From NCBI GenBank assembly GCA_030248215.1, contig JASANG010003930.1, positions 62,001-126,000 on the forward strand: 64,000 nt of DNA, written 5' to 3'. The stretch is from Enoplolaimus lenunculus. Lineage: Eukaryota. Below are positions 14,446 through 59,715 of the stretch, piece after piece; position 1 is the first letter of the stretch, and every line of letters starts with the position of its first letter. The notes beneath the pieces were generated by a model. It ran no database searches. It saw nothing but the letters and a program-made list of their open reading frames with translations, and had not been told where the DNA came from. The translations under genes were made by a program, and so were the position numbers.

Positions 14446-14777
14446 TTAATAGGGCCGATAATAGCTTCCGCTCACAATGGACCCGTTTGCGGTATCTCGA
14501 TGCGGTTGTAAATGAGCCGAACCACTGTACAGACCATACGGATCGCTTGGTGGATAGCTGATATAAGGCGTCGTATATGCGTCCATTCTTGCGTTATCAG
14601 TTGTGCTCACCACATCTTGCCAGTCGCGCAACGACGTGCGATCCCCGGGTAATGTTTTATTGGAATCATCTTTGAGTAGTTTGGAAGAACTTGCAGTTTT
14701 TGGCGAACCTGAATTTGCGCTTAGTTGGCCTGGAGTATTCGATATTGTGCAACCGTTGCTAGCGGTAATCGCTTGGC
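14446..14777 (-). CDS. Exon 35 (terminal coding exon)
   Basis: Strong TCTTTTCCAG phase-1 acceptor; GQAITASNG...SLRDWQDVV...GSYYRPY then TAA. Confidence 0.72.
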
Positions 14778-26700: not shown

Positions 26701-29700
26701 CGCTGTTGTATTGCGTATTAGTTTGCTCTAATCCTGAAAATATAGAGTAACACAGAAGGATAAGAAAGCTCGCAGGCACTAAAGAATATTTTACAATGAG
26801 CTTATATCTTACCAAAAGAAATGTTGGTTACGTATTATAACTGTATGTTAAGGGTAGCGCTATACTTTTGATGACGTCCGGTGCCGACCATCATCGTTCG
26901 TCATTCGCACGGTACCGGCCGTCACCCTCACGTGCCGTCCGTCACCCGTTACGGCGCCGTCCGTCACCCGTTACGGCGCCGTCCGTCCACCCGTCACCGT
27001 CACGTACAATACTGTACCGTGATGCACGGCGCCGTACGGGTGACGGATGGTCCGTACGACAAGTATAGCGCAACCCTTACGCATCTTAAATGTGTAAGTT
27101 CATTCAGAATTATTTATTTTCGGTTATTAAACACAAGAGTATACAGAATTGCTTTGAAAATAATAATTTAGTGTTTATATTGTTTCCATATACGAAAATA
27201 GAAAAATATTGATTCAGCCTTATTGAATATGAGATTAAGCAAGTTCACTTCGATATGTCCATCCTTACCAGATGGCGGGTCATGATAATACAGCCCAGGT
27301 TGTTGACCTTTCGCCCAAATGACGTCCATGTTCTTGTCGACAATAACGTGATCAGCCTTGGAGTCATTCGCTGAAAAAATTTAATACGGTTCTTTGTAAG
27401 CAGGTAGCAAGTTCCTGATTGGTTAGCTTACATTCGTCAAAATCTTATAGATTCAAAAAACCAGAGATTTAAAAAAATTTGCTTTAAAAATTAAATATTC
27501 CATTTGAGTTCAAACTCACTTCGAAGTGGCCTTCTGAACAATATTGTGGTAATGCCATCTTGTTCGTAGCCCAGTGCTGTTGTAATACTATCGCTTCCGC
27601 CGTAGAAACTGTCTTCACGAGGCGTTGCGCGGCTAATCTGAAATTTAAATAAAAATTAAGTATTTGCACATAAACAGCAAAAAAGTCTTATTTATTATGT
27701 TTCGTATTTTAGTCAATTTATCTTATCTGTATTTAGCAAAGATCGCGCTATGCGCAGCCATTTATAGGTTTTCAAACAAATGAACTACAATACTTGGCAA
27801 TAGAAAATTTGGCACAGTTGTAGCTTGTGTTTGTCGTAGAAAGTATATTAAATGTATTGGCTGTCAAAAGTAATCGCTAAGTTTGGATATACGCTGTGTT
27901 ATTCACAGTAGGAAATAGTTTCGCTAACTGAAGGTACTCGAATACGGAAGCTTGAAATTTTAACAGATTGAACAAAATCAATGATCGGCAAAAAGGTTTG
28001 GTTACTTTCGGAAAGTTTTAACAATAAAAACATCGTATTCATTCGTTCCAAATCATAATTTTATTTCGTCGTAATTTTGTGCTTTATATAAACACACGCG
28101 GGGTCTGTAAAGAAGAATAGCTTAAAGCGCAACTTATCACCTCTCGTTTCCTAGGCCGAATTGCAACATGCTTTATAGGTTGCTAACAGTCACATTTACG
28201 TTCTGCCCATGATTATTATAGGAGCGTTCCCACTGGGGAACAGGGCGTCGCGGAGACTTGAACATTGGAAAGCTTAATCTTAAGCTTAGGATTAGGAATA
28301 GGATTATGTTTAGGCTGTGGCTTAGGATAAGAATTAGTGTTCGATTTTGGCTTGGTTTAGGCGAAGCAGGCAGGCCTCTATAGATACGACGAGCTTTATA
28401 TTCATTCAATTTACCGTATAGTAATCTGCAACACGGCTTACGTAGCCAACTGCACTTCCGACAACAATATCCATGCAATCCATCGGGTGCAAGTCTAATA
28501 ATAACAGAACCGAATTACCCGGTGTGTCTAGTGGCGCCGTTCTGTAATCCGACGTCGAGCAGGCATACAAAAACGAATAAAATATTAGCTTTTAAAAGAT
28601 AAAATAAACGACTAAACTATTCGCTCTTAAGATTAAATTTTTAAACAGTTTGTGATGGTTCGATAGGTTAATTCCCATACCTCACCGACCCAACCGCGTG
28701 CCCCATGTTAAAAATTGTTTTGTCGCTCAGCATGCGGATTTGGCTACGCTCTGCTATTCAAAACTATCAAAACAACTTTTGGGCGAAAAAACGTTTCGAA
28801 TATTCTGAAGCAACTCTTAACAGATCAGATACAAAATAGCACCAAACGTTGTCAAAAAGTCAGACCAAGTATCCAGAAGAAAAGGGGTTTCAGCCCCCAG
28901 AATAATTTTGGCCTGCTGGAAAAGTTTAGCTTCAACAGTAAGCTTTTTTAAACCGCAAGCCACTCCTAAAATTGTTTTGTACCCCAAGCAGGTAAACTGC
29001 CTTCAAGCCTGCAGAGCAAATCTCTTACGTGGTTGTGTTCTGCGAATAGACGATGTCTTTGGCTCCGCTTCGGGTTCAGAATATTGAACTTGTTTAAAGC
29101 CTGGTTCAGGCTCGGCATATGTAGCATCTGAAATTTTAATTTTTATAACACTTTAGGAAACGGAAAAATTCGACTTAGCCAGTGTAATAAAATTACGGTC
29201 AATATGAGACCCTGTGATCGGTAGACGTCCTGTAAACATCTGTTATTTTGAAAAAGAGCAATCAAACGATAATTTGTTTAGTCTGAAATTTCGACCATCT
29301 TACTTTTAGAAGCATCCTTCATTCTCGTGGAGCTGCATAAAGCAGGCTAACGAATACAGCTATTTTTGCATAGGCTCAGGCTTAGTGTTACACATACCCG
29401 TTATGCTGATGCTTTGCTTTAGGAATCACACTGTTGTGTTCCTAAACGTGCCATTGGCCAAAAATTATATTAATGTATTTATACGAAACTCGTCTTAGCA
29501 CTTGTAAAAACAGCCTACAATAGTTTAAATCTAGAACGGATTATCGGTTCACGATAGAGGCCTCAGCGAAACGTAACTTTTTAAAAATAGCGTTTCCTGT
29601 TACCTTTAGGATAATATTCAACTTGACGTTTTGCACGCAACAGCGGCTCTCCATCGTCTAAAGTAAATTAACAACGGTTACCAACTTCAATCATGTGTTA

Positions 29701-32700
29701 ACACGAATATTCAGTTGAACACAACAACCAAAACGTTCCAAACAAATGCTACCGCAAACTGCAAGTGTCATTGTCGTTAAGCGACCCAGCGGCGTTCATT
29801 TGCTTGTTTTACAAATGGACACCAGAAACTAAACGCCAGTTACAATTCAATGAACACATTAAATGGATCAGATACGGACGCATGGAATTTATTGAAGAAC
29901 CGTCTGCTATTGCAGAATGGAGGAATTGATCCCATAACGATGGGGTTGCATGCACGAGAGAAACCTCGACAGCGAATTTTTCTGGCATCAAATGGAAGGG
30001 ACAAACCCTTTGCCTAAACCGGCTGCTGCACCACTCCGTTATGTTGTGTTCATAATTCACTTGTGCTGACTGGCTTGTAGCCAGCTAACATTTCTAGAAG
30101 AGGCTAAACAAATTTTAGGCCTAGAATACATGGGTATTCGATGAACTTACAAGCGAAAAAGTTTTTGTCGTTCGAGGTTCGAGTCAAAATTTTTATCGGG
30201 GCTGAGTCCTCCCTGTGTCACCTTTGGCTTCGGTAAAGTGTACCAAGCCGATCCGAAGCGAAATAAAAATTTACCAGTGCAAATGCAAATTTTTTCTTCA
30301 GATGCGATTGGAATATAATAGTCGTGGTATCCAATCGCCGTTCGACTATCGCGATATTCGTCCGCAGTGCGTGCAATCACTCGGCCGCCTCCAATTGGAT
30401 ACAAAAAGTAAACACACTCAATCATTGCAAGATCTTCTCGACGGTCTGGCGTTATCAGACGTCTGAAAGAAAATGCAGAGTTCAAAATTGTACGACTCAC
30501 AACCTTGTGCCCTGCGGAAATGTTCAAAGCCAATGTTCAACTACGGTTCTCGGCTTTCAAAAATTGTAGCAACCGGAAATTCGATAGACTTAAGGAAATC
30601 AATTACATATTTCAAATACCAATTAACGATTATGGATTTTAAAAACGATGGGAGTAAAATTTTAAATTCTGCACCATCCAAGAGAAATGTTAATAAAACT
30701 TCGCTTTTTCCATTTAAAATCGAACATCAGCAGCATATCTGTACTGAAAAACTGACTGATTTGTAAGCGATTCACAAGTGGCTGCAAATAATAACGTTGG
30801 AATTTGGTTGCATTTGCATAACAAAACTTTTCATACTTATACATAACGGAAACGGCAACTGATTCAAAATTTTAATAGAGATAAATATTCGGCTACACTT
30901 CGGCGAGTAGAAAGAGAAAATTTATTCACTTACCTTTTAAACGATATCGTTTGATGATTTCCCTCAACGCTTCCAGATACAACTTTGATATCTTGGGTTT
31001 TGTCTACAGCAGGTTGATGTTTTCCGTACGTGTACCTAAATGGTGAATAAAAATCTTAAGAATTTTGTAATATATTATCTATAATTATTGTTAAAAGATT
31101 TAATTTTATATTTTAAAACTAGTTGATAAATCTAATATAGCTTAGGTGTAGGCCTTGTTAGCAGCTATACAACCGGGCCCATAGCCAGCTAACCTTGCTA
31201 GGGGGGACAAAAATTTTCATGAGGGGCATAGAAGTGTTGTCGACGATGCACAAGCAAGGTTGAAAATTTTCTAGGAGGAATTCTTGTAGAAGGCGACCGA
31301 GCCCCCTTGCACCCCACTGGCTATCGGTCCACATACAACTAGTACTATATTCTTCTGCGCCCCATACTTGAAGTGCATTGAAAAAGTGATGTAGTGATAA
31401 CAACCATAAGCTCCGCCCAGCCTTTGCAATATTCATATACTGTATCGACGGCCATTAGAAATTGTTTATCTTGTAAAATAGAACATGGATATTTAATTTA
31501 CCCATGAAACTGTATCACTTACCGATCGGTAATGTAAGGTCGATCGTCGTAAACCCATCCAACAATGACGTCGCTGTTGGTCTAAAATATAAAATTAAGG
31601 TTAGAACCACAAACTAAACACAGGGACGAATTTAGGGGCTCACGCGATCGATATCCGAACATACACAGAGAAAAACTAGCAACTTTTAAGGTTATTACAA
31701 ATTTTAACGTTTCGATAAAAACCTTTTCGTTGCCATATTAAGTTTTGCTCACCAGATAGAAATAATTGCACGCCTAACGTATTTTAGAATTAACATTTAA
31801 GCACAAAATTTAACTTGTGTACTCAAAATTGATAATGCTTAACGAAACTTACACTTTGGAACTTACCATATTCTTATCTTCAGACAATGCAATTCCAGTC
31901 CAACGCCCAAGACCAGACGCGCTTATTGTGAACAGAACTTCTTCCGATTCGGGCAACAGTTGCCATGACGCGTGATAATCGCAATCGTTCGCTTCTACAG
32001 AACAGCCAGGCGGATGCTTGAATTCTGTGGTACAGCGTTCGGATTTTCGTTTTAACTCTGAAATAAAAACTCATTTATTAAACACGAATAAATAATGTGC
32101 ACTAAATTGAATTCCGGCTTGTCGGTAGCTTTAAAAATGTTACACCATTATGGAATAACGTGTAAACTTTGCAACAAATAGTTATTGTTATCCTTTATCC
32201 TCTCGCGTGTCCTTTTTCAGTTTGCAAAATGTTAGTCGCCTCCTGAAAGCTATCTGTAAGAAATTTGGTTCCCAATATATGATACTACAAAAAGGTATAC
32301 CTACAACTGGTTGATGAAAAAATTTCAATTTTGCAACGGTCTGGTTGCCAGCAGTTTATTAACGCGATATGCGACTAATGAAATGTGAATATGTGGAATC
32401 TACGACAATTCGTCGCCGAACAACTTGTGGCTCGACAGTGTCCTAAGCTTAACCTAAAGCATAACCCTAAGCCGACCCTGTGTCTAATTATGCGCGGCAA
32501 AATGTCGACTGGACGAGACTTCTGATTACAATTTGTCGGGCGATGAACTATCATAATGCCAAATTTGTAAATTTGATAGATTAAGGTAGGTTCACATAGC
32601 AGGCAACGTGATTCAAAACCATTAGTAGAAGTTATATATATAAATTTCAATAAACCAAAACCGATATTGCTAACCGAACTATAAATTATACTTCTTTAAA

Positions 32701-35700
32701 ACAAGTGAAACAGATTGGCAACTATGATTAAAATAATTTGTTTCTACATACCTAATTCCGTTGGTGTCTTTTGTCCGCAGGACCGAATGCAAACTCGTTC
32801 ACTCGATACCATCGGCGCGTCTAAATGCTTCTGAATACGACCGTTTGTAAAGCGACCGCCAGTAACAGGAAACAAGAAATGTGTGCATGCGTTGTCAAAC
32901 TGAAACCATACATCATCTTGTGTATATGTCGTAGCACAAGCCGTAATTCAGCCCAATTCCGAATTGGGTTAGACCAAGCCGTAATACCGTTTTGGACTAG
33001 ACCAATTCGGAATTGGGCTGAATTACCACTTGGGCTAAGACATATACTTGCAATACACAATGTACAGTGTTAAACAATTATTACGCGTATACGCAGAAAC
33101 AATCTGCGGGACGTGAGGGCGCGCTCTCGGTTTAATAATTAAACAAAAACTAGTATCGTGATTACACCAAGCGCATAACTTTTTGTATCAGTAAGGCAAT
33201 ATTTTCAACGCGGTTTAGAAGCGAAATTTTTAGCTTGTTTACTAAATATCGTTATGTCTCTTAATAAATCTGTTGCTATTGAATTAGCTCAAATTTTAAT
33301 GCAAAAAACACTTCACTCGTTGGTAGCCATTGGTACGCAACGTATCGCACTACAAATTTCAACTTCTGCAATCGAAAAATAAAATATCCATATCCGTCCA
33401 GTTTTTAAATTGTTTTAAGTTATACAGAACTATGTAGAACCCTTAAAGAAACTTTTGCTGCTGGTACAATGCGGTTTCCATCGCTGCTGGTACAATGCGG
33501 TTTCCATCCACGACGTATGGAACCGCTGAACTACGTACCCATGCAAGCCTTTCTCTACAACGGCTCAATATACCGTACGTTGATGGCCGCAGTCAACTTC
33601 GTCTTACTTGAGTATCACGTCTGTCACCAGTATCACGACTTCGTCGAAATCGGGCGCGTATTACCCCTTTGGTATGAGAACTGTCCAACAGTGTTACGTT
33701 TTGTCGAGGATCCTTAAATGGTTTGTAGTATCCGGTGGAGTACCTAAAAATTTACATATGTTCAGATAATTATCAAATAAACGCTTCTAAGTGGTGAACA
33801 AATATTTACCTTTTTACTAATACAGTATACTATGAGCGACTATTTACATATAATACGCGAGCAATACAGATACTGTGAGCAGTTTTTAACAATTCTAACA
33901 TATATGTGCAGCGCAAAACTTCGGTCATCGTAAACGCCTCAAACCTGTGAGACTGAGGATCGAATCACACATTGAAACTAAATCTGATATGAAATTAGAA
34001 GGGGAAAAATAATGGAAAAATTCACTCTTAGTATTTTTTAAATTCAGCCGCAGACAGAAATTTTGTAAATGATGCAACACACTTTTCGATTCAGAGATTA
34101 CTTTTCCCAGGTTCAGGTTTAAACAATTTTCTAAATAGCAAATCCTCATATCCAGGTATAGGACAGCTGGGAACAGCTGACCAGAAAAACATTTTTGATT
34201 TTATAAAAAATTTTAGAGCCATTCACGATGCATGATAAATTCAAATTCGCATAGCCCCTGGAAATTTTTGCACCCCCTTTTTATGTTATAGGCTGGCTAT
34301 GAGTTATCAACAGAGCAATTATATATCGTCGAGTTTTTTTATAGCTTTTTATTCATATCTGTATTTACCATTTAGTAACTATATTTTCGCCCATGTTCGT
34401 AAGCCAAACCTTTACCTAAGCCTTCCAAGCTATGAGTCCACCGGTTTGCATGTTTCTTATTAGACAGGCCCTTATAACTAACATCATGGACCATTATTTT
34501 TATTGCATTTGACAACGTTTAAACCTAGATTATAACCACGAAAGAGGATGTCCTATATATCATTAATTTGTATTAATTAACGAATGACAATAATTCAAAT
34601 TTTGGTAGTTTAAACCAAATGCTGCCTTTGAAACCCTAAAAAGATTTTCAACATTCAGTATATTTCAATTTACGCAGAACCATATAGGTCTCTACACGAA
34701 AATTCTGCGGCGTATGCGATAGGGTTCGAGCCCACGTCACGCAATCCATTCTTCTGTTATAACCGCTGAGATACGCAGCCATATTGTAATGGTAGTAAAA
34801 ATAACGAAACTTACATATCGTTCAATTTAAGGCCATCATCCTTATCGCTAGTAATCATTATTATATCGGCATCGTGCTAAAACAGTGCAATATACATGCT
34901 GAAAGCGAATAAGATTCTTTAGAATATGGTTCACAACTAATACCAGGGATTTTGTTATGTTTATTAAATTACAACAACAAAAGTTTTCCGTGAAAAAATA
35001 ATGCACCTGCTTGTTTCCTTCCGTAAGCTTTTGGACAGGTCTATTCGTATGCCAAAACCTAATCCAATTCCTACCAAAACATGAAATTCTCGAAAACTGG
35101 ATAACAAAACGTAACACAACAGAAAATAAAATGTTAGCTTTAAAACTGTAGATTTATTCAATATTCGTTTACATTATCGCACTTAGCCGTCGTTTGCCTA
35201 AAAAAGTTCGATTTTAAAAATTTTGCCTTTTTCAGCTTCTCATGGCCTTCCCTGATCATTTCACTCTAAATATTAATAAATATTAATTTTTAAAATATTT
35301 CATTTTTTAAGATCGCAAGGTTTCCCCTTAGCAGTTGGAATAAAAAAATTGTCAAAGGGTTAATAAACCATTTGGTGCAGCTTGCTGAGCTGATGCGCAG
35401 ATAATCAGTTGATTAACGAGTTATTGTCATATAACTGACTTGGTGCGGTGCCAACGTTTTGGGATGGCGCGAAATAGTTATTTCACCACGGCTTATTATT
35501 CGATCGTATGATTGCGTAAAATTTAACACCATTCAACTGAGGTCCGCAAGCTGCATCAAGTGATACATACGTCGTGTAGTTTTTGACAGAAAGTTTTGGC
35601 CTGAAGGTAGGGAGAGACCTTCAGGATCTTTAACAAATTGTCCAAGTTAAAAATTTGGGCGTGTAATGATCAGGGGAGGTCATCAGAATCTCAAATGCAA

Positions 35701-38700
35701 ATATGAAAAAAATTTCTAACCCAACCATTATGGGCAAACGCCTACAAAACGGGATAAGGGAAAAGAGCCGTTCAAACTAAATTTCAACAAATTTTCTTTC
35801 TTTCTGTCCAATGAAATACACTAAATGACGTCGTCCAACAAACATACCATTGTACCACTGTCCGAAAACCCAACTCCAGTCCACCATCCACTAGGACTGC
35901 GCGCTTCGAGTGTGAATTCAATTTCGTCCGATGGTTGTTCGCTTTCGCTCGCTTCTCGATCGCCCAAATACGACCAGCTTAATCGATACTCGCACGGCTT
36001 TTCAAGATGTGCAGCGTCAACACAATCAGGCGGATATCGCCATTCACCAAAACAGTTTCCGGTTCCTGTTATTTCCGGACGTAACGCAGCGGTTGTTGTT
36101 TCGATTGTCACTTTTGTTACTGGGGTCACCTTTGTGTCGGTTTGATGTTCTGTGTTTTTCGGCGAATTAGCTGTGTTGGTAGAGCTTTCAACTGGTGTAG
36201 ATAGTTTTGTGGTAGTGCTGGATGAGTGAACTGTAGATGCTACTGATATGTTGGAACTTGAACTATTTTTCGAACTTGCTTTGTTCATTGATTCTGTGCC
36301 GGGAACTGAAGTTTCGGCGTTAAATCGTGTTGTACCTTGCGATTGATGGTGACCTTTACCAAGTTTTGTTGTAGGCCTGTTAGTATTAGCCAAAGACGTT
36401 AACACTGATTGAGATTCGAGCGGAATTGCCTGAAATTAACAAGATAAGTATTATTATTAATAATAACGTTGTTATTCAATTTGAGAACAATATATTGCTA
36501 AAAGTTTTGTGTAATAACAAATTAAATTGGTAATTCTAAACCGCATATAGTATTCATCAATTAATAATTTATCAATTAAAAAGCAAACGCTATCAAGCAA
36601 CTAAGTTTTTATTATTGAACATTGGAGCCTTTCTTTCGAAGAATTATTCTCTTAAAACCAACGAATACCACCTCAAACCGTTTTTTAATCAATTTACTAT
36701 CGATTGTGAGAAATAAATGTAAGCATGAACAAATTTAAATTTCGCCGTTAAAAACTTACCGAATTATAGATTTTGGCTGTTTCAAACTTTGATAAAACGG
36801 CAGCTTCTTGCGCATCAATCTCATGGGTTGTAGTAGCGACTTGGACGTTCGTAGGCGTAAACTGTTCACTGATTTCACCACTGATCAAATCAACTGTCGT
36901 TGATAACTAAAATGTAAAGTAACCGAATTTCATTCCGTTCAAAACCAATGAACGACTGATTTAGTATAAAAAATAACACAATCGCCGTGAGTTAAAAAAG
37001 CTGGGCTGACATAAAAAAATGAACTTTGGCATTTTGATATAAGGCGACCCACCTCTGCACAGTAATAAAACTATAAAACACAAACTCGACTTATTGTCAA
37101 AACCCTGGCTGCGAAAGCTAAGTAGTCAAGTTTTGTATCACCAGGGTGTATGCAAGAAACAATAAGGGTGAAATATTAATACCGTCCCCCGAAATTTTAA
37201 AGATGCGAAAGGAATAGACACCTTTACTGGTTTTAAAGTAACTTGCTAGATTCTAAAATAAAAAAGTTTTCTCGTGATAAAAACTTAAATAGACCTATTA
37301 TATTCCTCTTTGAAATGAAGTTCTGACTGCGCCCCTGGCATCATGTAAGATTTCTCACTTACACCTTCCTGTTGTAGCTCATTAACCGGAGCAAGATCCG
37401 GAGGTGAATACGTTTCTGGCCCTGCAACTTGTAAGTTTTGTTGATCCTGGTCATAAGACAGCACCGACGATTGATCTTTTCCTTGAACGCCGTCAAACTG
37501 TGAAATGTAGTAGTCAGGTTGCTGGGCTGGCTCACCAACAAGTAGTATTGGCGATTTTGCAGTGTCAATGGTTGCAGTATTTGGCGTACCAGGCTCATTG
37601 GATATGGGTTCTGGCAGTGCGAGGTCACCTGAACAATGTTTAGTAGAAAAAGTAAAAGTTAATTAAAAAATCAAAAATTCTGAAGTGTCTCGCTTTAATA
37701 ATGGAGTAGAATTTATAAGATGATAATATTTAGTAACATCGCTTTAATTGTAATGAAAAAAATATTTATAGATAATATGTGAAGTTCACTGTTTCCTGTG
37801 TCTTGTAACTGGTTTACCTAATATGCTCAGGTTTGTAGCCTGCTAAACATGCTGTGGGGGTGAAAACTCCGGGAGATCTATGCAATTGAACTTGAAATGG
37901 TCAAAACGTTTTAGCAGGACTGGGGGGAACACGCGCTGCTCTTTTTGGCTACAACCCCGTAATGCCTGTGGCAATTATTCAGATGGCTTGAAATAAATCA
38001 TAAAGTTGACAATTGCCCTCAATCACACACAAAATATATTTTTAAGTTTAGAAGAGTCTGCAAAGAAACATCTAGTGAAGCTATTTTTCGCTAAAATTAT
38101 ATTTATTAATGACTGTTGTCAATCAGTTCAACCAAGAGTGCATGATACAAGAGTATGCAACTCTTTGGATTCCGCATGATACAAAATATACCACCGGGCA
38201 TTGCGTTTTTGGTGGACCCCCCTTGTTTAGAGGGGGGTTGCTGTCACATGCAATATACCCTAAATTAAATTATAAGCGGAGCAATTTGTTACCTAATACA
38301 TAATGTGTCATGGTTCGCATAGATTGTACCCCCTCTAAATAAAGAAGGGTAAAGCAAAAATGCAACGCGTGCCGGATACATTCTTTCTACACAGAATGCA
38401 TCCAGTTGCATACTGTTGTTGGGTATGCATCATCCACTATTGGTTCAACACACTGCTAGATGGTGCCTGTTATGAATGACAACAAAAAAGGTGCAAATCT
38501 TTGCTTTTGCTGTTGTCACCAAAGAATTGTGATATTAAACTAAATGCAGCGTTCATGTTTTTAGTACTGAAGTTTAACACTTTCTCGCACAGAGTATACT
38601 ATGAACAACTAATTGCAAACTGTATACGATTAAATTCGTTATAATACCTTCCAACTCTGTTCTTTTTGTGACAATTGTTTTCGGTTGGCTGTCAATACGA

Positions 38701-41700
38701 AGCGAAATTTGCGGACCTCGTACATCATGACTTTGAAGCAGGGCAGAATACTGATCTGCTCCAAGCTGATCTAGCCAGATTTCCGGTTCAGACCGGCGTT
38801 CCGGTTCAGGTTTAGGCTCTCCTTCAGCGATTGGATAACTTGGAGAACTCAAGCGAGGTAGTGCTGCACAAGTAGTTGAAACGTCTTAAAACAGTTTATG
38901 AATAACTTGAATTTTGATGGCTTTTGTCAATATATTAAGCACAACTCTGTATATTTGCAGCAAATTAAAGTTTGTCATTTTTCGCAAGAAATTTTATTCA
39001 ATATAAACCAAGTGAGAGGTTAGGGTATATATGTAGAGCCTGTTGTATTACTCCAGTCGTTATGTTTTGGGGATCTTTTTTGTGAACTGTAAGTTCCAAT
39101 GAGTGTACTAATTAACGTATAGAGAACTAGTTATTTCTGTTTATTTCTGAGTTATTTATAACAGTAAATAATAACTCACTCTGAGCTGATCTACTTCCGA
39201 GAGATTTGATCAATTAACTTAGAATGATTTCAATAAATTTACAATTCTGAGTTCTGAGAGACCTAATTCAGCGCTCAAACTTTTGAGTGGATTCAACTCT
39301 TTCTGAGTTGAAATCAACGTATTTCTCATTTACAGTGCGGGAGGGAAGTATAAACAAGTAAACATAACTCACCTGAAGGTCTCCATCCGACGGCAATCCA
39401 AGATGTGCTCGGAAATTGAAGGACAAATTCGATTTCGTTTTCTTGCTGAAATATTGTGTTAACTAATTGAAGAGTTACCTCAGATATTACACAAAGCAAG
39501 TCAGTCTATAATACATATTTAGAATTAATCACATTTTTCACGGTTCAAAGTTAAAATCTTTTTCAAACTTTTAGCTGAGAAGGCAGTAAGCCTTTAGCAA
39601 ACTCAGCATGCTAGGCAGACGCAGACAAAACTATTTTATGTTTCTTAAAACGCTATAATGCGAGCACTCTGCACATTCAACGCGACAGCATAATTTTCTA
39701 CTAAAATTGTAAAATGTTTACCGTAGACGGATGTACGGACTGTGGGATGTACGATACATAGATAGTTTGCTTAAAAATTATTAAACTCGTAAAATTATAT
39801 TTCTCAAAATTAAAGTTTCATTCAATTTGTCAATTTTACTTTCAAAAACATAATAGTATTTGCCGTAAAAAATTCAATTTCTCCCAAATTTTTCGTATCG
39901 GCGCAAAAAATCAGAAGCAAACAAGGCTTTTGTTTTCAAATAAAAACACAGATGCATAGAGTAAAGAATGCTTGTCTGCAATTTACCGGCAAGATACGCC
40001 ACATTATTTTGTTTTGTTCCGGTCCAACAATTCGCTTCGTATATAAACTTTCGTCAATATCATCTTTATGGGATACCTTTGAGCCTAAAAACGAAAACAC
40101 ACCTGTTAGAAATAGATATTGCCTAAGTGTAAAAGTACATGGTTTTTCGGTTATCCGCAGAGCCATCGTTTACCGAACAATGGTAATATTTTGAAAATTT
40201 TTGCAGATTGTATCTTCTTGACGACTGCCTCCGATCATTTCCTGAGCCCGTAGCCAGAGGAGTTCAACACTTGCAGAAAAATTTCGGCCAAACTACAAAA
40301 GTTGTATAGTCCTGCTTGTGAGTCTTGCAAAATCAACGAAGTTTTGGCCCCACTGACATGTTATGCTGGCTACGGCCCTGTCGCTTACACAACTAAGTTT
40401 TAGTTCTTGCAATTTTAATATTTCGAGGTCACAAATTATTTGTACCATCCCAGATCGTTGGCAGTGCACCAAATCAGTTATTTAAACGTTACCTTGCAAA
40501 CATTTGGCCACATTGCAAAAGCAATCATTCAAGCGGTTTTAATTTCTAGTAGTTTTAGTGGATTTAGCTCTTTCTAACAGTAGTTATTAGTCAAACTAGC
40601 TCGTGTTTGCCGATAGGTGGTCTGGGCTCTTGTATACAATTCCAGCACATTATAAGATTAAGGCTTATGATACAAGTTTAACTTACGTTTATCGCACAGT
40701 TTTCCAAAATACCCCATTTTGCAGTAACATACTCGTCGAGGATATACTTCACTGTATCGAATTTGGCATAATCCATATTGACCACAGTCCGAGTCTTGCC
40801 AACATTCATCTGAAATTTTGTAAACAAGTTAAGCCTAATTTAGCTTTTGATTGATCATAACTTATATTTCTACGACTCGCAGGGTGTATTTATTTCAGGC
40901 CGACACGAGAAGTGAAACAAGACTGAATGCTTGGACCGAATGATTACATACTAAAATTGCGAATGAAAGATGACGCTTATAACAAAGGTAAGTCAAAAAT
41001 ACAATTCTTAATTACGGGGGATCATTGCGCTAAAAGCAGGGGATACCCTGAGAACTAAAAATGTGCGTTGTAATTTTTTAGCACAAGTTTAACAAACATA
41101 CTTCTATTCTAAATAGTTAAATTAGAGCACCAAACAAAGGCAATTAGGCTGGATATTAATAGAAACAAAATTCTGAAGTACTTATCTTGGGAGCAAAATA
41201 CTTTAAAAAGACTTTCAGGCCGTCTCAAAAATCCAGACCGTCTCAAAAATCCAGACCGTCTCAAAAATCCAGACCGTCTCAAAAATCCAGGCCGTCTCAA
41301 AAATCCAGACCGTCTCAAAAATCCAAGCCGTCTCAAAAATCCAGATCGTCTCAAAAATCCAGACCGTCTCAAAAATCCAGACCGTCTCAAAAATCCAGAC
41401 CGTCTCAAAAATTCTGACCGTCTCAAAAATCCAGACCGTCTCAAAAATCCAGACCGTCTCAAAAATCCAGACCGTCTCAAAAATCCAGACCGTCTCAAAA
41501 ATCCAGACCGTCTCAAAAATCCAGACCGTCTCAAAAATCCAAGCCGTCTCAAAAATCCAGACCGTCTCAAAAATCCAAGCCGTCTCAAAAATCCAGACCG
41601 TCTCAAAAATCCAAGCCCTCTCAAAAATCCAGACCGTCTCAAAAATCCAAGCCGTCTCAAAAATGCAGACTGTCTCAAAAATCCAGACCGTCTCAAAAAT

Positions 41701-44700
41701 CCAAGCCGTCTCAAAAATCCAGACTGTCTCAAAAATCCAGACCGTCTCAAAAATCCAGACCGTCTCAAAAATCCAAGCCGTCTCAAAAATACATTGGTTG
41801 CTTAAATTTTTTGTGCCGTAGTATACATCAACGTCCTTATGTGAAAAAAGTTGATAGTTATATTGTGCTTACCTTCATTTTGGCAGTAGGACCCTGAGTA
41901 AAATGTATCACATAGACATCCGGAGCCAGTCCACGTCCCGTGGCCAGAGCATAACGTTTCAGCAACAGGAACTAAAGTAAACGATCGACAAGCATAGCGT
42001 CACGAGTGCATAAATATGTACGCAAAATTTCAATACTTATATTTCGTATACCCAGGCCTGCAGCCAGCACACTTTGCTAGTTGGACTAAACATTTTTCAG
42101 AAGGGGCATTCAATGGGTTTGGATGACGTACAAGCAAGGCTGAAAATTTTTTGGGAAGGTGCGAAATTCTTCCAACAGGGCTGAGCCTCCCTTGGCCCCC
42201 ATATGACTACGTGCATGCATATACCGCACCTATCAGTGATTAGAGATCGTTGGCGAACCCAGGGTTTTGGTTTGGGAAGGGTAATACACAGGGCCGGTGT
42301 TAGGATAGTTGGGTCCCCCTGAAGGGAGGCTTCAATTAAATGTTTCACAACTCTTTCATTTCGTGGCCCACGAAAAGCTTTTAGTTTGCCAAGCTGTACT
42401 TCAGATATTGCCGGGTTCGAGGGGGGCGCTTCTTCCGCCACTGGTAACACCAAGTACTTTAGTGTATATGGTTTGTTTTAAGCCTATAGGTCTCAGCTAG
42501 TATTTTATTTACAAAATACACTAGTCAAATTCATAAGAGGGGTCATTGACTCATTTGTTCCCTCTGACTGCGTACTTGTATGAAACGCTATTTTTCGTCT
42601 AGAATCTTCGAAACATCTAAGCGATGCTTACCTTGAACTATTGACACGTCAGCGCAACTGAGGAAATTATACGTTGGGCCCCATTCAAGACCTTGCCGGG
42701 TCAAACGTATCGCACATTTTGGACACTCAAATCCTTCGGGCAAATTGACTAGGTAATGTGTCAGTCTGAAACAGTATTTTCACCCATTAGATAAAATTTC
42801 ATCATACCAGCCATGTATAGGCAGCGGCAATGATAACAGTTGCAAACAAGCACTCGAGTTGATGCTGGTTTTTTGAGCTCCAAGTTTGGTAAAAGGTAGA
42901 AGTTTACTTTCCCAAACTACTACTGCTTCATCATTCATTTTACTAAACCTATCTATCAGGTTGCAACCGAAGCTGAAAAACTGGAGACGATGCCGCAGGT
43001 AAATAACTTTAGCCGGAGCCGGAATTGGAGTTGGAAATAAAGCAAAAATAGGTTATAAAAATAAGGTTCAATTTACAACTTTTAACAATAATTTGCAAAG
43101 AATGGTCAGAAAACAGTTCATAAGCTTCCTTTTTAAGAACAAAGTTAAAATCAGCTCGATGTGAAAAGCACAACTGGGATAAACAAATGAAAAATTTCAT
43201 TACCGAAGTTACCGGAACTTCTGAAAAAACTCTGCACGAAGCCGGGACCGGAGGTCAATTTTTTGCCGGAGTCGGAGTCATACCTCTGGTTGTACCCTGA
43301 TAGTTGCATGTCACAACAAATAGGGTTTTATAGATGAGTTCCGCATTTGTGAAATTTAGTATGCAGGGCCAAAGTCAAGCCTCGCAATAGTCCTCCTGGT
43401 GACTGTCACCTTTCTGGTTCACCGAGGGACCACGGTGTTGGCTGATGTCCTGGTTATAAATGAAATAATTCGATGCGTAAGTTGAAGGAAAATTTCCTAC
43501 AGCTACGTATACGATGCTTTTAAGAGTATCGGAAAGCATATAAATCACTTTAATTTGAACTAAATTTTACGAGTGAATGAAAACAGCAGTAGAATGAATA
43601 TGAGTATGTGTAAAATCCCTTACGTGGGAGCCTTACAGGAATTAATGAGTGTTACCGTGGGCTTCGTCATATATGTAGTTTTATGAAAGGCTTACGCATA
43701 GAACGCTTAGACTTACGTTGGATGCGTTTTACCCGCATAGTCATCTTCTTCAAGTGTTAGCTCCATAAATGCGTTATCGAATTCGTCAAGTAGTTCTAAT
43801 CGAAAACCACCCTAAATCTTTACTAATACAATGTATAAAAGACATAAATTACTTGGCAAATTTTCGTTATGTTTCGGCTAAAAATTATAAATGCCTTCGC
43901 CAAATTTTCAGTTACTTTGCATATTATTTGCTTTTGAAATTTAAATAAATCACTCCGTAAAGAAGCATATACAGAGTCGAATCTAGAGGGCACCTTGGTG
44001 CAGTAGCTTTCACCAGAAATTGTTTCAGGAAAAATGGTAAGGGCATACTTCACTAAAATTAAATTACTATACTACTCTTCTAACCGCAACAACTGTGATT
44101 AGCTTTGCAACTCACAGAATGACTATTAGATTTTAGCGTAAAAATGCGTTAAATTAATATCAGAGACGCAAAAACGAGTTTTTCTAGGGTTCTCAGACGG
44201 CAGGACACCGGTTAACACAAAAACAAAACGTGCCATCAAATCCTCGATATCCCCCATTTGACGGGCTTCACCTCTAAAGGGGCCCCCGTGTTTAACCGGT
44301 TCAAACAAAAACCGCCGAAGTTTTAAAATACGTAACAGTCAAAGGACGAATTATTTAAGCAGAAATATTTAAACACAACTTTATATATAAGCGATACTAC
44401 AAATATAGAGATTTTATCGGCCACGCCACCACTTTTCGATGGACAAAGTTGTAGACATACCTGATGCGGATATGATAAAGTCCACGATACATTAAATTTT
44501 GAACCAGCTTGGATTGTAGTTCGAACTCCTGAAAAAAGATCGAAATAATCAGTTTAAAAGTTTAAAATACTACGCACGTCAAACATGGATATATACTGCA
44601 ATGGAACCGGACGCGGATATGTAGCCACAGCGACGTGCCTAAATGGAAGAACCTTCAGTGAGATTTATTAGTTAAATCGAGATTAAGAGACAAATTTTAT

Positions 44701-46016
44701 CACATTTTCACAGCAACAACATTTTTATATATTTAAAAGCCAACGTTCTCAAACGCAAGTATATATCATATTTTATATAATATTAAAATACATAGGGTTA
44801 GTTGTTATTCGCCAGAAATCGTCCGCCTCAGAACAAGACCACGAGCAGGAGTCAAAGCCAAGAATTTGCCTTAAGATTTAGCACTAAAATTGCGTTTTAT
44901 TTTTCACCCGAGAATTTTTTCACAATTACATATCGAGTGACCCTTTATCATCACAAAATTTGGCAGTGCGGATAAATCAAAAAGAAATGTCATTTGAAAT
45001 TCAACTAATTTAAACTTTAACTCACGAAGGTCAAGGTTGTGAATAATTTCCAATCATTCTGTATGTCAAACTCAAAATAATAAAATTGTCCATTAATTTT
45101 TTTCGTAATAAAAGAATTTGTTTTGAATCCATGTTCAAAAGTCAAAAATTTAATTTGTTTCGTTTGTCCAAAAACATTTTGACATGTGGGTTGAAGTGTG
45201 GTCGAATAAAATGATTTAAGTGTTGTTAAATTACACCGACCTTTAAAACGATTAATGTTACCGAAATCGTTAAAAACGAAACAATATTCGAGGCAAAGGT
45301 TTTTTAAAATGATTATATCTGTCGCCTAGCGCCACTGGGCTGGCTCGTAAACAGCTCATGTTGCTAGGGGGCGGAAAATTTTTCAGAAAAAACATACATG
45401 GGTTTTCGATGACTTACAAACAAGGTTGAAAATTTTCTAGAAGGAGGGCAGACAAAATTCTTTCTGGAGGAGGACTGAGCCTCACGGCCCCCACTGGCTA
45501 CGGGCCCGTTGATGAGTTAAAATATGTTTTTGTTTCCCTTATGCAAAGAACCTATAGTGGTCTGGTAGCCCTTGGTAGATCAAATATTTTTCGGTGGAAT
45601 GCGGTTGAATATTTTATGTATATTAACGGGATGCCGAAAGTTTCGCTGGGACCCTCCAAGGGGGTTTCGGTTAAATTCCTAGAAGGTATGGTGGATGGTA
45701 GTCGCAACATTGTGCTTGATGACATTATTTATTCCTCCATTCTCATGTTGTATATGTCGTTGATCCAGTGCCATGTATGCCAGCATGAAAACATACCTTC
45801 ACCATCGCGAGGAGCTGGTACGCCGCACGCGCCCGAATATCGATGATTATCCAAAAAATCCAAATCAGGATATCGCGCTTGTGGGAATGTAAGACGAACG
45901 TGCCCAACACAACGCCCGGGTACATTTAAAATTGCATAGATTACAAATATTATTCGCAGTTGGTGCAAAGTTGAACACTTCCACCGGAAGCGCTCGTTGT
46001 AACTTTGAGGTATCAT
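14446..46016 (-). CDS. 35-exon gene for a ~1847-aa type I membrane protein: signal peptide, His-brace LPMO-like domain, 2x EGF, 4x DOMON (two nested), SEA, TM, Tyr-rich tail
   Basis: Manual splice model with all introns GT-AG, matching phases at every junction and no in-frame stop. Exons: 46016-45797, 44528-44461, 43811-43717, 42765-42632, 41971-41873, 40809-40687, 40084-39987, 39445-39373, 38884-38648, 37628-37363, 36906-36760, 36429-35848, 34876-34815, 33743-33608, 32899-32752, 32057-31867, 31581-31523, 31035-30934, 30462-30275, 29127-29029, 28494-28415, 27637-27520, 27370-27269, 26733-26629, 25612-25437, 24787-24726, 24177-24037, 22221-21641, 20867-20740, 19823-19762, 18950-18796, 18000-17867, 17226-17167, 16369-16189, 14777-14446. 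From memory it resembles the Drosophila nahoda-type EGF/DOMON proteins; this was not verified by a search. Confidence 0.88.
15131..15746. repeat. 21-bp minisatellite, about 29 copies, in the last intron
   Basis: Unit TTTTTACTTTAATGTTACAAC, near-identical copies. Confidence 0.95.
16189..16369 (-). CDS. Exon 34 (cytoplasmic, Tyr-rich)
   Basis: DGYSMYHTGSYKHVPAG...YQPYSNSFA; both splice sites are weaker than elsewhere. Confidence 0.7.
17167..17226 (-). CDS. Exon 33 (cytoplasmic)
   Basis: TTTCAG acceptor; YDPSKSASSVPFSPYSYLLQ; phase 0-0. Confidence 0.75.
17867..18000 (-). CDS. Exon 32 (transmembrane helix)
   Basis: VREDTATELRNYIIIGVACFLILLAVIFAVCLITRTRRAKSKEYF: hydrophobic helix followed by basic stop-transfer residues. 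Confidence 0.88.
18796..18950 (-). CDS. Exon 31 (SEA, GSV motif)
   Basis: QGSVISIIEMIVRGEPVRPLALEQSVLEYLASSGNRIGAMTVDPQSIFVQE. Confidence 0.88.
19762..19823 (-). CDS. Exon 30 (SEA)
   Basis: VTEVFDQRFQRLEKIQVINFR. Confidence 0.85.
20740..20867 (-). CDS. Exon 29 (start of SEA domain)
   Basis: APQIATQRFRMRIRLPDEQWNEDYRDRKTQAFQVMAQRVGLA. Confidence 0.88.
21641..22221 (-). CDS. Exon 28 (end of DOMON-4 plus P/E/S/T-rich stalk)
   Basis: LNKCVYMVYPVLGG...IQRHDSTKPLVISEAKVCLLQC followed by EPE/ST-rich sequence. Confidence 0.9.
22421..23490 (+). mobile_element. Non-autonomous DINE/Helentron-like element with internal tandem repeats
   Basis: Imperfect inverted ends TTGAGCGAAGC...GCTTCGCGCGCTCAA; AAAATCGGTTCAGCCGTTCCTGAGA followed by GGACGGACGGACA; 155/175-bp internal repeats. 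Confidence 0.65.
24037..24177 (-). CDS. Exon 27 (DOMON-4)
   Basis: HSIGEDAPAVDYQQNIYGITGHYSDDGVLHFVFTRPLQTNDDSEDI. Confidence 0.9.
24726..24787 (-). CDS. Exon 26 (DOMON-4)
   Basis: SQIDWVIARMSETGEIEAFDR. Confidence 0.9.
25437..25612 (-). CDS. Exon 25 (DOMON-4 N-half)
   Basis: DPPTRDLPTECTGVYEFGEDQQYRVSWFRRDSDVTFTVDARVPADSWTGVGFVNEQIPT. Confidence 0.9.
26480..26557. repeat. Perfect 29-bp inverted repeat with a 20-nt loop
   Basis: GTAGTCATTTTTGAGGGGTGCTCCATGTC and its exact reverse complement. Confidence 0.95.
26629..26733 (-). CDS. Exon 24 (end of DOMON-1)
   Basis: GLEQTNTQYNSDFYELDVLKYHGKLNRGMFNVNFY, YHG-x-x-x-RG motif. Confidence 0.9.
26851..27077. mobile_element. GC-rich MITE (PIF/Harbinger-like ends)
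   Basis: TIRs AGGGTAGCGCTATACTT / AAGTATAGCGCAACCCT with TA/TWA flanks; internal CCGTCAC/GGCGCCGT repeats; a related degenerate copy lies near 24390-24560. Confidence 0.75.
27269..27370 (-). CDS. Exon 23 (DOMON-1 C-half)
   Basis: TNDSKADHVIVDKNMDVIWAKGQQPGLYYHDPPS. Confidence 0.9.
27520..27637 (-). CDS. Exon 22 (DOMON-1 C-half)
   Basis: ISRATPREDSFYGGSDSITTALGYEQDGITTILFRRPLR. Confidence 0.9.
28415..28494 (-). CDS. Exon 21 (DOMON-1 resumes)
   Basis: HLHPMDCMDIVVGSAVGYVSRVADYYT. Confidence 0.9.
29029..29127 (-). CDS. Exon 20 (EPE-rich linker)
   Basis: DATYAEPEPGFKQVQYSEPEAEPKTSSIRRTQP. Confidence 0.85.
30275..30462 (-). CDS. Exon 19 (end of DOMON-3)
   Basis: RLITPDRREDLAMIECVYFLYPIGGG...AIGYHDYYIPIASEEKICICT. 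Confidence 0.9.
30934..31035 (-). CDS. Exon 18 (DOMON-3)
   Basis: YTYGKHQPAVDKTQDIKVVSGSVEGNHQTISFKR. Confidence 0.9.
31523..31581 (-). CDS. Exon 17 (DOMON-3)
   Basis: TNSDVIVGWVYDDRPYITDR. Confidence 0.9.
31867..32057 (-). CDS. Exon 16 (DOMON-3 N-half)
   Basis: CTTEFKHPPGCSVEANDCDYHASWQLLPESEEVLFTISASGLGRWTGIALSEDKNM. Confidence 0.9.
32752..32899 (-). CDS. Exon 15 (end of DOMON-2)
   Basis: FDNACTHFLFPVTGGRFTNGRIQKHLDAPMVSSERVCIRSCGQKTPTEL. Confidence 0.9.
32922..33047. repeat. Palindromic mini-element
   Basis: GTATATGTC..GTAATTCAGCCCAATTCCGAATTGG / CCAATTCGGAATTGGGCTGAATTAC..GACATATAC. Confidence 0.85.
33608..33743 (-). CDS. Exon 14 (DOMON-2)
   Basis: YSTGYYKPFKDPRQNVTLLDSSHTKGVIRARFRRSRDTGDRRDTQ. 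Confidence 0.9.
34708..34780 (-). pseudogene. Degenerate tRNA-like or SINE remnant
   Basis: Minus strand TATCTCAGCGGTTA (A-box-like) and GGGCTCGAACCC (B-box-like), with no intact cloverleaf. Confidence 0.35.
34815..34876 (-). CDS. Exon 13 (DOMON-2)
   Basis: HDADIIMITSDKDDGLKLNDM. Confidence 0.85.
35848..36429 (-). CDS. Exon 12 (S/T-rich mucin-like stretch plus DOMON-2 N-half)
   Basis: Ends CFGEWRYPPDC...CEYRLSW...EIEFTLEARSPSGWWTGVGFSDSGTM. Confidence 0.9.
36760..36906 (-). CDS. Exon 11 (linker)
   Basis: LSTTVDLISGEISEQFTPTNVQVATTTHEIDAQEAAVLSKFETAKIYNS; phase 0-0. Confidence 0.8.
37363..37628 (-). CDS. Exon 10 (linker)
   Basis: Open frame GDLALPEPISNEPGTP...ELQQEG between a TTCAG acceptor and a GTAAGT donor. 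Confidence 0.8.
38648..38884 (-). CDS. Exon 9 (PEPE-rich linker)
   Basis: DVSTTCAALPRLSSPSYPIAEGEPKPEPERRSEPE...KRTELE; phase 1-1. Confidence 0.8.
39373..39445 (-). CDS. Exon 8 (DOMON-1 N-half)
   Basis: QENEIEFVLQFPSTSWIAVGWRPS, DOMON W-x-A-x-G-W strand. Confidence 0.9.
39987..40084 (-). CDS. Exon 7 (start of DOMON-1)
   Basis: RSKVSHKDDIDESLYTKRIVGPEQNKIMWRILP. Confidence 0.85.
40243..40380. mobile_element. Short GC-ended MITE family (CAGGGCCGTAGCCAG-type termini)
   Basis: GCCCGTAGCCAG...CTGGCTACGGCCCTG; related copies near 20230, 31172-31330, 42053-42215, 45330-45508 and 54550-54700. Confidence 0.6.
40687..40809 (-). CDS. Exon 6 (EGF-like 2)
   Basis: DECWQDSDCGQYGLCQIRYSEVYPRRVCYCKMGYFGKLCDK, six Cys in EGF spacing. 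Confidence 0.9.
41220..41789. repeat. 18-bp minisatellite, about 31 copies, in intron 5
   Basis: Unit CCGTCTCAAAAATCCAGA with AG/GA variants. Confidence 0.95.
41873..41971 (-). CDS. Exon 5 (EGF-like 1)
   Basis: VPVAETLCSGHGTWTGSGCLCDTFYSGSYCQNE. Confidence 0.9.
42632..42765 (-). CDS. Exon 4 (C-terminal strands of LPMO-like domain)
   Basis: LTHYLVNLPEGFECPKCAIRLTRQGLEWGPTYNFLSCADVSIVQ. Confidence 0.9.
42957..43299. mobile_element. MITE with CAGG(G)TGCAACC termini and CCGGAG repeats
   Basis: CAGGTTGCAACCG...CTGGTTGTACCCTG; related right ends near 7570-7645 and 52430-52524. Confidence 0.6.
43717..43811 (-). CDS. Exon 3 (LPMO-like domain)
   Basis: GGFRLELLDEFDNAFMELTLEEDDYAGKTHPT; GTAAGT donor. 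Confidence 0.9.
44461..44528 (-). CDS. Exon 2 (LPMO-like domain, second His)
   Basis: TTTCAG acceptor; GVRTTIQAGSKFNVSWTLSYPHQ; GTATGT donor. Confidence 0.9.
45797..46016 (-). CDS. Exon 1: start codon, signal peptide and N-terminal His
   Basis: MIPQ...RIIFVIYAILNVPGRCVG|HVRLTFPQARYPDLDFLDNHRYSGACGVPAPRDGE; donor G|GTATGT. Confidence 0.85.
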
Positions 46017-46203
46017 ATCTACTGGGCTAGCGCTGGTTTGGGCAGTGAATGGAACAAACTAAATTCGAAATTATAAGTTTTTCTTGGTAGTAAGTAAAGT
46101 GAGACGGTGGGAGATTAGGTATAAAGCTTCACTTGGGTTACAGCTACTGTTTGCAGTAACAACGTTACATGGCGTGGATGACTACATTAATTGTGTTAAT
46201 AGC

Positions 46204-46209
46204 CTGAAA
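46204..46209 (-). promoter_or_regulatory. TTTCAG acceptor about 190 nt upstream of the ATG; possible SL trans-splice site or 5' UTR intron acceptor
   Basis: ctgaaa on the + strand with an AT-rich upstream tract; its role is inferred. Confidence 0.45.
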
Positions 46210-48109: not shown

Positions 48110-48195
48110 GCTTGGCTTAGGCTTAGGTTTAAGCTTAGACTTACGAATATGCTCATTCTTACGCGTAGGCGTAGGCTTAGGCTTAGGCTTAGGAA
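48110..48195 (+). repeat. Interstitial telomere-like (TTAGGC)n tract
   Basis: GGCTTAGGCTTAGG...GGCGTAGGCTTAGGCTTAGGCTTAGG; many degenerate tracts occur elsewhere in the window. Confidence 0.75.
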
Positions 48196-51100: not shown

Positions 51101-51483
51101 CCAATTCGGCGTTGAAATTTTTTAAATTCCGGTTCCTGTTCCTATTCCGATTCCTGCAAAGAAATTCAATTTCAATTCCTGTTCCTGTTATAAAGATCCT
51201 AAAATCAAAACGTTTGTGTACTGAACGATTATTTCAAAGAACCCGCAGTTATTGACAACTACGAAACATTTTATCTCCGGGTGATATAAACTTGAGTTTC
51301 AAATTAAGCGTAACAATCGTATTAAAAACCAAAAAGCGACGGACCAGCATGAAGGCTAAAAACTGCTACACCCAGTGCATTGGAAATAACAATTATTTGT
51401 GTACAGAAATAATTGCCGATTTCAGAATAGAGTTACACTATCAGTTTATAATCACGTAAAGTTAAATTGAAAATTTAAATGCT

Positions 51484-51858
51484 TACTGTACTGACACGAA
51501 TAAGAGGGGGACAGATTTCTGTTTGAGCTCTTCAGATATTTCCCCTTTGTTATTAGGTTACGGACTGTTATTTGTTTTTAACCCACGCTCCGCCTCTCTT
51601 CGTTACTGATATATATGGTACAGCGATTATCAGTTGAATTAAACGTTTATTTGTCTTGTACAAAAAGCTTGAGCGGTAATTCAAGGTTATATTTAGAAAT
51701 GTACCACAGTTCGGGATAATTGACATTTATGGACTATAATTAGGGTTTAGGGATTATCCGCTTGCAAGCTCTTATTAGGGATACGTACTCTTATTGATGG
51801 GGACTCAAAATAGGAACCCACCTCTTATTGCCCCCCTTTTATTCGGGTCACTACAATG
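51484..51858. mobile_element. MITE with TACTGTA-TGAC-CGAATAAGAGGGGG-type termini
   Basis: Inverted ends; the right half matches 26140-26285 in reverse complement; a degenerate copy lies at about 4267-4680. Confidence 0.6.
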
Positions 51859-57800: not shown

Positions 57801-57928
57801 TGTTTTAAAAAATTATATCGTCAGCATGATTCTGACATTCCTTTTGCATGAGTGCTTGTTACTGAACATATTATATATACATATATATATGTATGTTTGT
57901 ATTTATCGGGGTTCAAACGGAATTCCTG

Positions 57929-59588: not shown

Positions 59589-59715
59589 GCTTAGAAATAT
59601 GTGTTAGGCTTTGGATTTAGCTTAGAAATATGTGTTAGGCTTTGGATTTGGCTTAGAAATATGTGTTAGGCTTTAGATTTAGCTTAGAAATATGTGTTAT
59701 GCTTCGGATTTAGTT
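59589..59715. repeat. 31-bp tandem repeat, 4 copies, containing TTAGGC-like words
   Basis: GCTTAGAAATATGTGTTAGGCTTTGGATTTA at 59589, 59620, 59651 and 59682. Confidence 0.9.

Follow-up and report, generated by a model that had tools for sequence, protein, structure and literature searches.

A predicted membrane-anchored protein of Enoplolaimus lenunculus with an LPMO-like N-terminal domain, a candidate copper brace and downstream DOMON domains

The histidine brace of lytic polysaccharide monooxygenases (LPMOs) depends on the N-terminal amine that signal cleavage sets free, and AA15 is the only animal His-brace class listed in Table 1 of a review (PMC10952591). The copper site of the AA15 enzyme TdAA15A is composed of His1, His91 and the axial Tyr184; an axial Phe is found instead in TdAA15B, which is chitin-active, and in most chitin-active AA10s (PMC5823890). 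The AA8 cytochrome domain hands electrons to LPMOs (PMC13575373), and the cytochrome domain of cellobiose dehydrogenase (CDH) is a DOMON homologue that holds heme b via a Met and a His; animal CYBDOMs retain these two ligands and sugar-binding DOMONs lack them (PMC10691727). Here we describe a gene on a 64,000-nucleotide stretch of Enoplolaimus lenunculus DNA (assembly GCA_030248215.1, contig JASANG010003930.1, positions 62,001 to 126,000 of the forward strand; hereafter the window), whose product is predicted to be an 1838-aa type I (single-pass) surface membrane protein with an LPMO-like domain at its mature N-terminus (the His domain) and DOMON domains downstream. Our leading proposal, whose chances we put a little short of even, is that, once the signal peptide is cleaved off, the His domain would bind copper with His39 and His95 and act as a tethered oxygenase fed with electrons by the protein's own DOMON heme.

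The His domain comprises 134 aa (residues 39-172) directly after a signal-peptide-like segment. Its four exons (46016-45797, 44528-44461, 43811-43717 and 42765-42632) show GT-AG splice ends, agree in phase and leave residues 1-172 free of stops, in agreement with the compact domain of ~135 aa proposed in the initial annotation; the frame is open from 46058, and its first Met is encoded by the ATG at 46016. The codons that had been read for His39, His95 and Phe162, together with Cys64, Cys142, Cys145 and Cys165, all lie where they were first placed. The parts of this region are as follows, with the supporting evidence in brackets; NF043005 denotes the bacterial SCE4755 family of NCBIfam, and 5msz is the PDB entry of TdAA15A.

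45903..46016, minus strand: predicted signal peptide, residues 1-38 (sequence and hydropathy; cleavage predicted)
45797..45902, minus strand: exon 1 part of the LPMO-like domain, with His39 (45902-45900) and Cys64 (45827-45825) (hhalign to the bacterial alignment, E 3e-5, probability 73%)
44461..44528, minus strand: exon 2 of the LPMO-like domain, the strand leading to His95 (44466-44464), with Tyr93 and a sequon at Asn86 (bacterial-profile and 5msz alignments)
43717..43811, minus strand: exon 3 of the LPMO-like domain, the strand that follows the second His, plus an acidic loop (bacterial-profile alignment)
42632..42765, minus strand: exon 4 of the LPMO-like domain, with Cys142-x-x-Cys145, the putative axial Phe162 (42665-42663) and Cys165 (NF043005 at E 0.17, profile positions 112-145 of 146; hhalign E 3.6e-5)

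The second-His motif straddles the 44461/43811 exon junction. We rejected a 45-nt candidate exon at 44638-44594, which as drawn lacks a GT donor and which breaks the frame; the domain aligns without it.

As judged by sequence comparison, the His domain is a homologue of LPMO-like proteins, with a similarity greater than expected by chance. The spliced domain scored 14.4 bits against a window-free profile of 15 domains, while the best of 3001 decoys (3000 shuffles and the reversed sequence) scored 7.3. The NF043005 members behind this profile were collected without the window sequence, from 1 of 401 and 4 of 200 genomes and from 25 metagenome loci; 15 of the 29 loci were used, near-duplicates and partial ones being left out. 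Scores of 30.6 bits (best decoy 7.5) and 31.5 bits (best decoy 8.4) were obtained against profiles of 120 bacterial domains (P0044 dropped) and of 251 of the 252 bacterial domains, two sets that are biased toward the window because the retrieving profile, built from three bacterial domains, also contained the window's four exons. These deep searches listed 120 of 1077 proteins and 150 of 1943 representatives. Among the matches listed, the best bacterial pairs share 33-35% identity with the window domain over 124-130 residues (z 13-15).

The 251-domain alignment spans domain residues 1-130 and puts His39, Cys64, His95, Cys142/145, Phe162 and Cys165 on conserved columns. The bacterial domains begin with His in 246 of 251 cases, and this His is preceded by Ala in 239 of these 246; their axial column is Tyr in 244 of 251 and His in one, the motif being absent from the remaining six. 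The mixed profile hits TdAA15A (5msz) at E 2.6e-5, with His95 aligned to His91 and Phe162 to Tyr184, and the bacterial alignment finds by sequence AoAA13 (E 5.6e-4), TdAA15A (0.008) and ScLPMO10C (0.028). Homology thus supports both the LPMO-like fold and the brace residues put forward in the initial annotation, His39, His95 and Phe162 falling on the first His, the second His and the axial Tyr that the bacterial domains conserve; the axial position given to Phe162 fits both these domains and TdAA15A.

Fragments of the domain gave weaker results. Single unspliced frames reached at best 3.5 bits (E 6.6 among 2142 frames), which is not significant, and exon 4 alone matched NF043005 at E 0.17 (12 bits) and 5msz at E 1.5, neither of them significant. 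Single-exon hhalign comparisons gave only 71-73% probability, which weighs against the strength of the homology, and a Pfam scan of the single exons, which are fragments only, gave no match to BIM1-like (PF20238). Exon 1 found no match in a word-index homologue search or in a scan of metagenomes, and a DOMON stretch found none in the word index. Exon 4, scanned against genomes, yielded nine short matches around the C-x-x-C motif, which were taken as chance, and NF043005 was found in none of the five genomes tested; a phage tblastn search gave six rows, all at E of at least 1. None of the 252 relatives among the matches listed matches the window protein outside the His domain (no EGF, no DOMON).

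Evidence on the fold was taken from models of two of the bacterial relatives. The model of relative L032 (15 sequences, pLDDT 71) matched TdAA15A with a VIA Z of 9.2; it gave no Foldseek row at E<=0.001, and its top eight rows are LPMOs. The model of relative P0166, built from 130 sequences, has 108 of its 200 residues at pLDDT>=90. It superposes on TdAA15A with a VIA Z of 10.8 (rmsd 3.3, 124 aligned), and further VIA matches are to AA10, AA13, AA11 and AA16 at Z 8-9.4 and to fibronectin-type domains (Z up to 8.8); of the top 19 VIA rows, 15 are LPMOs or LPMO-like, as are all six Foldseek rows at E<=0.001 (LPMO-type). In most of the LPMO rows, TdAA15A included, His19 of the P0166 model is aligned with chain residue 1.

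The segment before the domain has a long, basic n-region, a hydrophobic stretch at residues 22-32 (9-residue hydropathy peak 3.26), Pro33 at -6, Cys36 at -3 and Gly38 at -1. The C-V-G ending first noticed ahead of His39 is present, behind a hydrophobic core, as is usual for the end of a signal peptide, the cleavage itself being a prediction. Cleavage at Gly38|His39 very probably frees the His39 amine, and the assignment of this site is supported because His39 aligns with the first His of the secreted bacterial relatives. A brace made by His39 and His95 above Phe162 is quite likely, as are disulfides that join Cys64 to Cys165 and Cys142 to Cys145.

The predicted gene consists of 35 exons separated by 34 GT-AG introns of compatible phase, which give one open frame ending at a stop at 14446. 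Exons were picked by splice signal, phase and domain continuity; the least secure parts are exon 38863-38648 and the joins after 17867, where the splice signals are weakest. In the predicted order, the signal peptide and the His domain (39-172) are followed by two EGFs, four DOMONs, a stalk rich in Pro, Ser, Thr and Glu (P/S/T/E), a SEA-like domain, a membrane helix and a tail of ~180 residues. The gene and the features downstream of the His domain are as follows.

14446..46016, minus strand: whole predicted gene (splice signals, phases, single open frame)
41873..41971, minus strand: EGF-like domain 1 (Pfam EGF_Teneurin E 2.9e-4, under the curated cut-off)
40687..40809, minus strand: EGF-like domain 2 (Pfam JAG1-like_EGF2 E 0.006 and EGF_2 E 0.011, under the cut-offs)
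39373..40084, minus strand: predicted N-terminal half of DOMON1, residues ~263-303, two exons (positions 19-53 of the DOMON2-4 profile, E 4e-4)
32752..36054, minus strand: DOMON2, residues 639-815, inside the DOMON1 insert, with Met707 and His798 (Pfam DOMON E 8.8e-4 and 2.9e-6, single exons)
30275..32057, minus strand: DOMON3, residues 831-1003, inside the DOMON1 insert, with Met886, and with His986 off the column (Pfam DOMON E 1.6e-4 and 3.1e-4)
29604..29657, minus strand: exon with the furin-like R-A-K-R, residues 1010-1013, in the linker that leads to DOMON1's second half (sequence; putative cleavage site)
26629..28494, minus strand: predicted C-terminal half of DOMON1, residues 1055-1188, four exons, with Met1058 and His1149 or His1175 (positions 58-126 of the DOMON2-4 profile, E 3.8e-6; Pfam DOMON positions 69-100 of 124, E 0.013)
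22090..25612, minus strand: DOMON4, residues 1196-1359, Thr1247 replacing Met, His1340 kept (Pfam DOMON E 1.6e-3 and 1.6e-5)
18796..20867, minus strand: SEA-like domain, residues ~1516-1623, three exons, after the P/S/T/E-rich stalk (Pfam SEA E 5.6e-4 on the first exon, under the cut-off)
17867..18000, minus strand: predicted single transmembrane helix, ~1635-1657, followed by basic residues (19-residue hydropathy peak 3.27)

No carbohydrate-binding module, flavin domain or cytochrome b561 domain was found in the gene model. A stand-alone small secreted protein was considered and rejected, the frame running on through phase-compatible exons to the membrane helix.

The DOMONs downstream of the His domain, which the initial annotation did not use, carry the main mechanistic clue. 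Seven single exons matched Pfam DOMON at E 2.9e-6 to 0.013, each under the cut-off because each is a fragment. A profile of DOMON2-4 was matched in two parts, positions 19-53 at residues 268-300 and positions 58-126 at residues 1057-1128; therefore, DOMON1 appears to be split around DOMON2, DOMON3 and linkers. The insert (40084-26629, minus strand) is ~750 residues long and contains two whole DOMONs and long P/S/T/E-rich linkers. A furin-like cut at R-A-K-R (1010-1013) could, if the motif is used, leave two chains joined by the reassembled DOMON1. The Met of an M-x-x-x-D motif is present in three of the four DOMONs (Met1058 in DOMON1, Met707 in DOMON2 and Met886 in DOMON3), and His798 of DOMON2, His1340 of DOMON4 and His1149 of DOMON1 fall on one column. 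By this Met/His pattern DOMON1 and DOMON2 look complete and DOMON3 is uncertain, so that DOMON1 and DOMON2, perhaps with DOMON3, are rather likely to bind b-type heme by Met/His; DOMON4 is probably heme-free.

It is proposed that cleavage at Gly38|His39 would expose the free amine, after which one copper ion would be held between His39 and His95 above Phe162. A DOMON heme would then reduce Cu(II) to Cu(I), as the CDH cytochrome domain does for fungal LPMOs, and the copper site would oxidise a matrix glycan (eggshell or pharyngeal chitin) or a glycoprotein beside the cell. The first electrons would have to come from a partner protein or a small reductant; an outside source is invoked because flavin and cytochrome b561 domains are both missing from the protein. 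More broadly, and well short of even chances, the gene may represent an undescribed animal family in which a His-brace head and up to three heme-b DOMONs on one anchored chain remodel a chitin or glycoprotein matrix oxidatively; as part of this tentative idea, the window's copy would lengthen the electron wire by nesting two extra DOMONs in DOMON1.

Several observations weigh against the proposed heme-fed oxygenase. The geometry of the brace is borrowed from relatives only ~33-35% identical to the window domain. The domain is small, with 56 residues between its His residues versus 90 in TdAA15A, and in the 5msz alignment Tyr93 stands for Ala89 and Tyr160 for Glu182, the latter being presumably a catalytic second-sphere residue of TdAA15A. 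Among the DOMONs, DOMON4 has Thr1247 in place of Met and His986 of DOMON3 is off the aligned column, and the putative heme and copper sites are separated in sequence by ~90 residues of EGFs, or by ~460 residues for DOMON2. No animal orthologue appears among the matches listed, whose rows are crowded by bacterial-type proteins, so that animal ones may rank lower; no paper on the SCE4755 family was found in literature searched without most subscription journals. Two further points against, a tie in the fold comparison and the Pfam assignments of the relatives, bear directly on copper uptake or handling, which is the main rival. In this rather unlikely alternative, an X325/Bim1-like brace would capture Cu(II) on the outside of the cell, the heme DOMONs would reduce it to Cu(I), and the metal would be handed over to a transporter or cuproenzyme with no polysaccharide being cut. 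LaX325, a copper protein without lytic activity, ties with TdAA15A as the best fold match of P0166 (VIA Z 10.6, rmsd 3.4, 121 aligned), and relatives at E<=0.001 match Pfam BIM1-like more often than LPMO_10 (120 of 130 versus 92 of 130). The small domain, the membrane tether and a gene model without a carbohydrate-binding module also fit copper handling. Bim1 serves copper uptake, and both it and LaX325 leave cellulose uncut (PMC7924993, PMC7529816), and the DOMON heme of insect CG8399 is proposed to reduce metal ions (PMC10691727). However, the fourth ligand of X325/Bim1 is an Asp (PMC7529816), whereas the window domain has Tyr160 at the bacterial-consensus Asp column before the last strand and keeps an axial aromatic residue; Glu155 could still act as a fourth ligand.

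The missing LPMO-type Ala and Glu positions and the small surface would also fit a different substrate, as in a non-lytic surface redox enzyme whose copper site makes or uses H2O2 for cross-linking or signalling in the cuticle or eggshell matrix. Reduction of O2 without substrate is characteristic of LPMOs (PMC10952591), and the EGFs, SEA-like domain, stalk, helix and ~180-aa tail make up a receptor-like body; yet no peroxidase or oxidase partner was found in the window and nothing speaks directly for this role, which we regard as improbable. Mucin-like surface proteins typically show this EGF-SEA-stalk-helix layout, which with the long low-complexity inserts would suit a receptor for adhesion or for organising the matrix, its LPMO-like and DOMON domains serving only to bind glycans or proteins and its metal sites being vestigial. 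Some DOMONs do bind sugar (PMC10691727), and DOMON4 has lost its Met. A vestigial site, however, would have no need of the residues that have been kept: a His39 precisely where cleavage is predicted, His95, the axial aromatic residue and the four Cys. This last explanation seems to us slightly less probable still. The heme-fed oxygenase is retained as the working model with the tentative standing given above.

No second gene was found in 1-14400 or 46100-64000, where a strict exon scan gave only three short candidates, and the window seems to hold one gene. The splice acceptors are TTTCAG in 16 of 34 cases and TTTTAG in 8 of 34; acceptors of these types and TTAGGC words are, we assume, nematode features. 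A TTAGGC-based 9-mer occurs 14 times in the window versus 0.8 expected, vertebrate- and insect-type words not being enriched. Degenerate TTAGGC-type words are scattered in introns and flanks (e.g. 48095-48200, 28300-28330 and 18130-18200), and these dispersed words look like an element built on what we take to be the nematode telomere unit. Intronic minisatellites at 41220-41790 (18 bp x 31.7, 92% match) and 15132-15746 (21 bp x 29.2, 96%) account for long repetitive open frames; other tandem repeats lie at 22458-23281 (period 330/174 bp), 57929-58328 (200 bp) and 59574-59718 (31 bp).

If the reading is right, the fusion of a His-brace domain to heme-type DOMONs would constitute a second animal His-brace class with a built-in electron donor, the electron source of animal LPMOs being, to our knowledge, an open question. 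A gene family whose annotation stops at its DOMON domains would also gain a function that can be tested. We take the Drosophila nahoda (CG12781) family to combine a His-brace-like head, EGFs, DOMONs and a membrane anchor; by this architecture the window gene is probably a roundworm member of that uncharacterised family, to which it adds four DOMONs, their nesting and an axial Phe. Nahoda is named in a DOMON-enriched gene set (PMC4316639), and in the same literature search no paper connected nahoda, or a DOMON-EGF protein, with a His brace. DOMON signatures are mentioned without detail among 53 predicted LPMO candidates in a preprint (10.1101/2025.06.05.658061), and its supplements may bear on the novelty of the combination. 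A fungal LPMO-like protein acting on nematodes has been described (PMC12377627) and is unrelated in origin to the window gene.

Among the matches listed, the closest sequences are those of the uncharacterised bacterial SCE4755 family. They share with the window domain a signal peptide followed by His1, a C-G motif, the second His, the C-x-x-C, an aromatic-x-x-C-A-D end and a compact size. The differences lie in the axial residue (Tyr in 244 of 251 bacterial domains versus Phe162), in a Q-x-x-Q-x-M strand (Gln in 120 and 119 and Met in 120 of 120 domains) where the window has Arg148, Arg151 and Gly153, and in a family score that reaches only 12 bits on exon 4 versus a 75-bit cut-off; together, these sequence comparisons point to a distant relative of NF043005 and not a member. 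Most of the bacterial SCE4755-type proteins (L026, L028, L030-L035 and P0002-P0252) have a linker rich in G/S/T and, at the C-terminus, a Cys and a hydrophobic anchor, two being named MYXO-CTERM proteins; they too therefore appear to be surface-tethered. In P0043 and P0059, the SCE4755-type domain occurs in ~610-aa proteins that carry PF04389, which we take to be a peptidase M28 domain.

AA15 (TdAA15A, PDB 5msz; TdAA15B) provides the top fold match of the two modelled relatives, is an animal class, and has in TdAA15B the same axial Phe. The window domain is ~60 residues shorter (134 versus ~195 aa) and is fused to EGF, DOMON and SEA domains and a membrane helix; membership in AA15 was rejected on size, on the His spacing (56 versus ~90), and on Tyr93 for Ala89 and Tyr160 for Glu182. 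X325/Bim1 (LaX325, PDB 6ibh; PF20238) resembles it as a small, surface-tethered His-brace domain and as the tied fold match of the relative, whereas these proteins are fungal, single-domain and anchored by glycosylphosphatidylinositol, with an Asp on a Gly-rich loop as fourth ligand; the window protein has an axial aromatic residue, DOMONs and no Asp at the column before the last strand. The CDH cytochrome domain (AA8) and its fungal LPMO partners supply the working model by analogy, in which a DOMON-type domain with a Met/His heme would feed a His-brace copper. There the partners are separate secreted proteins served by a flavin or pyrroloquinoline quinone dehydrogenase, whereas here both would belong to one membrane protein without a dehydrogenase.

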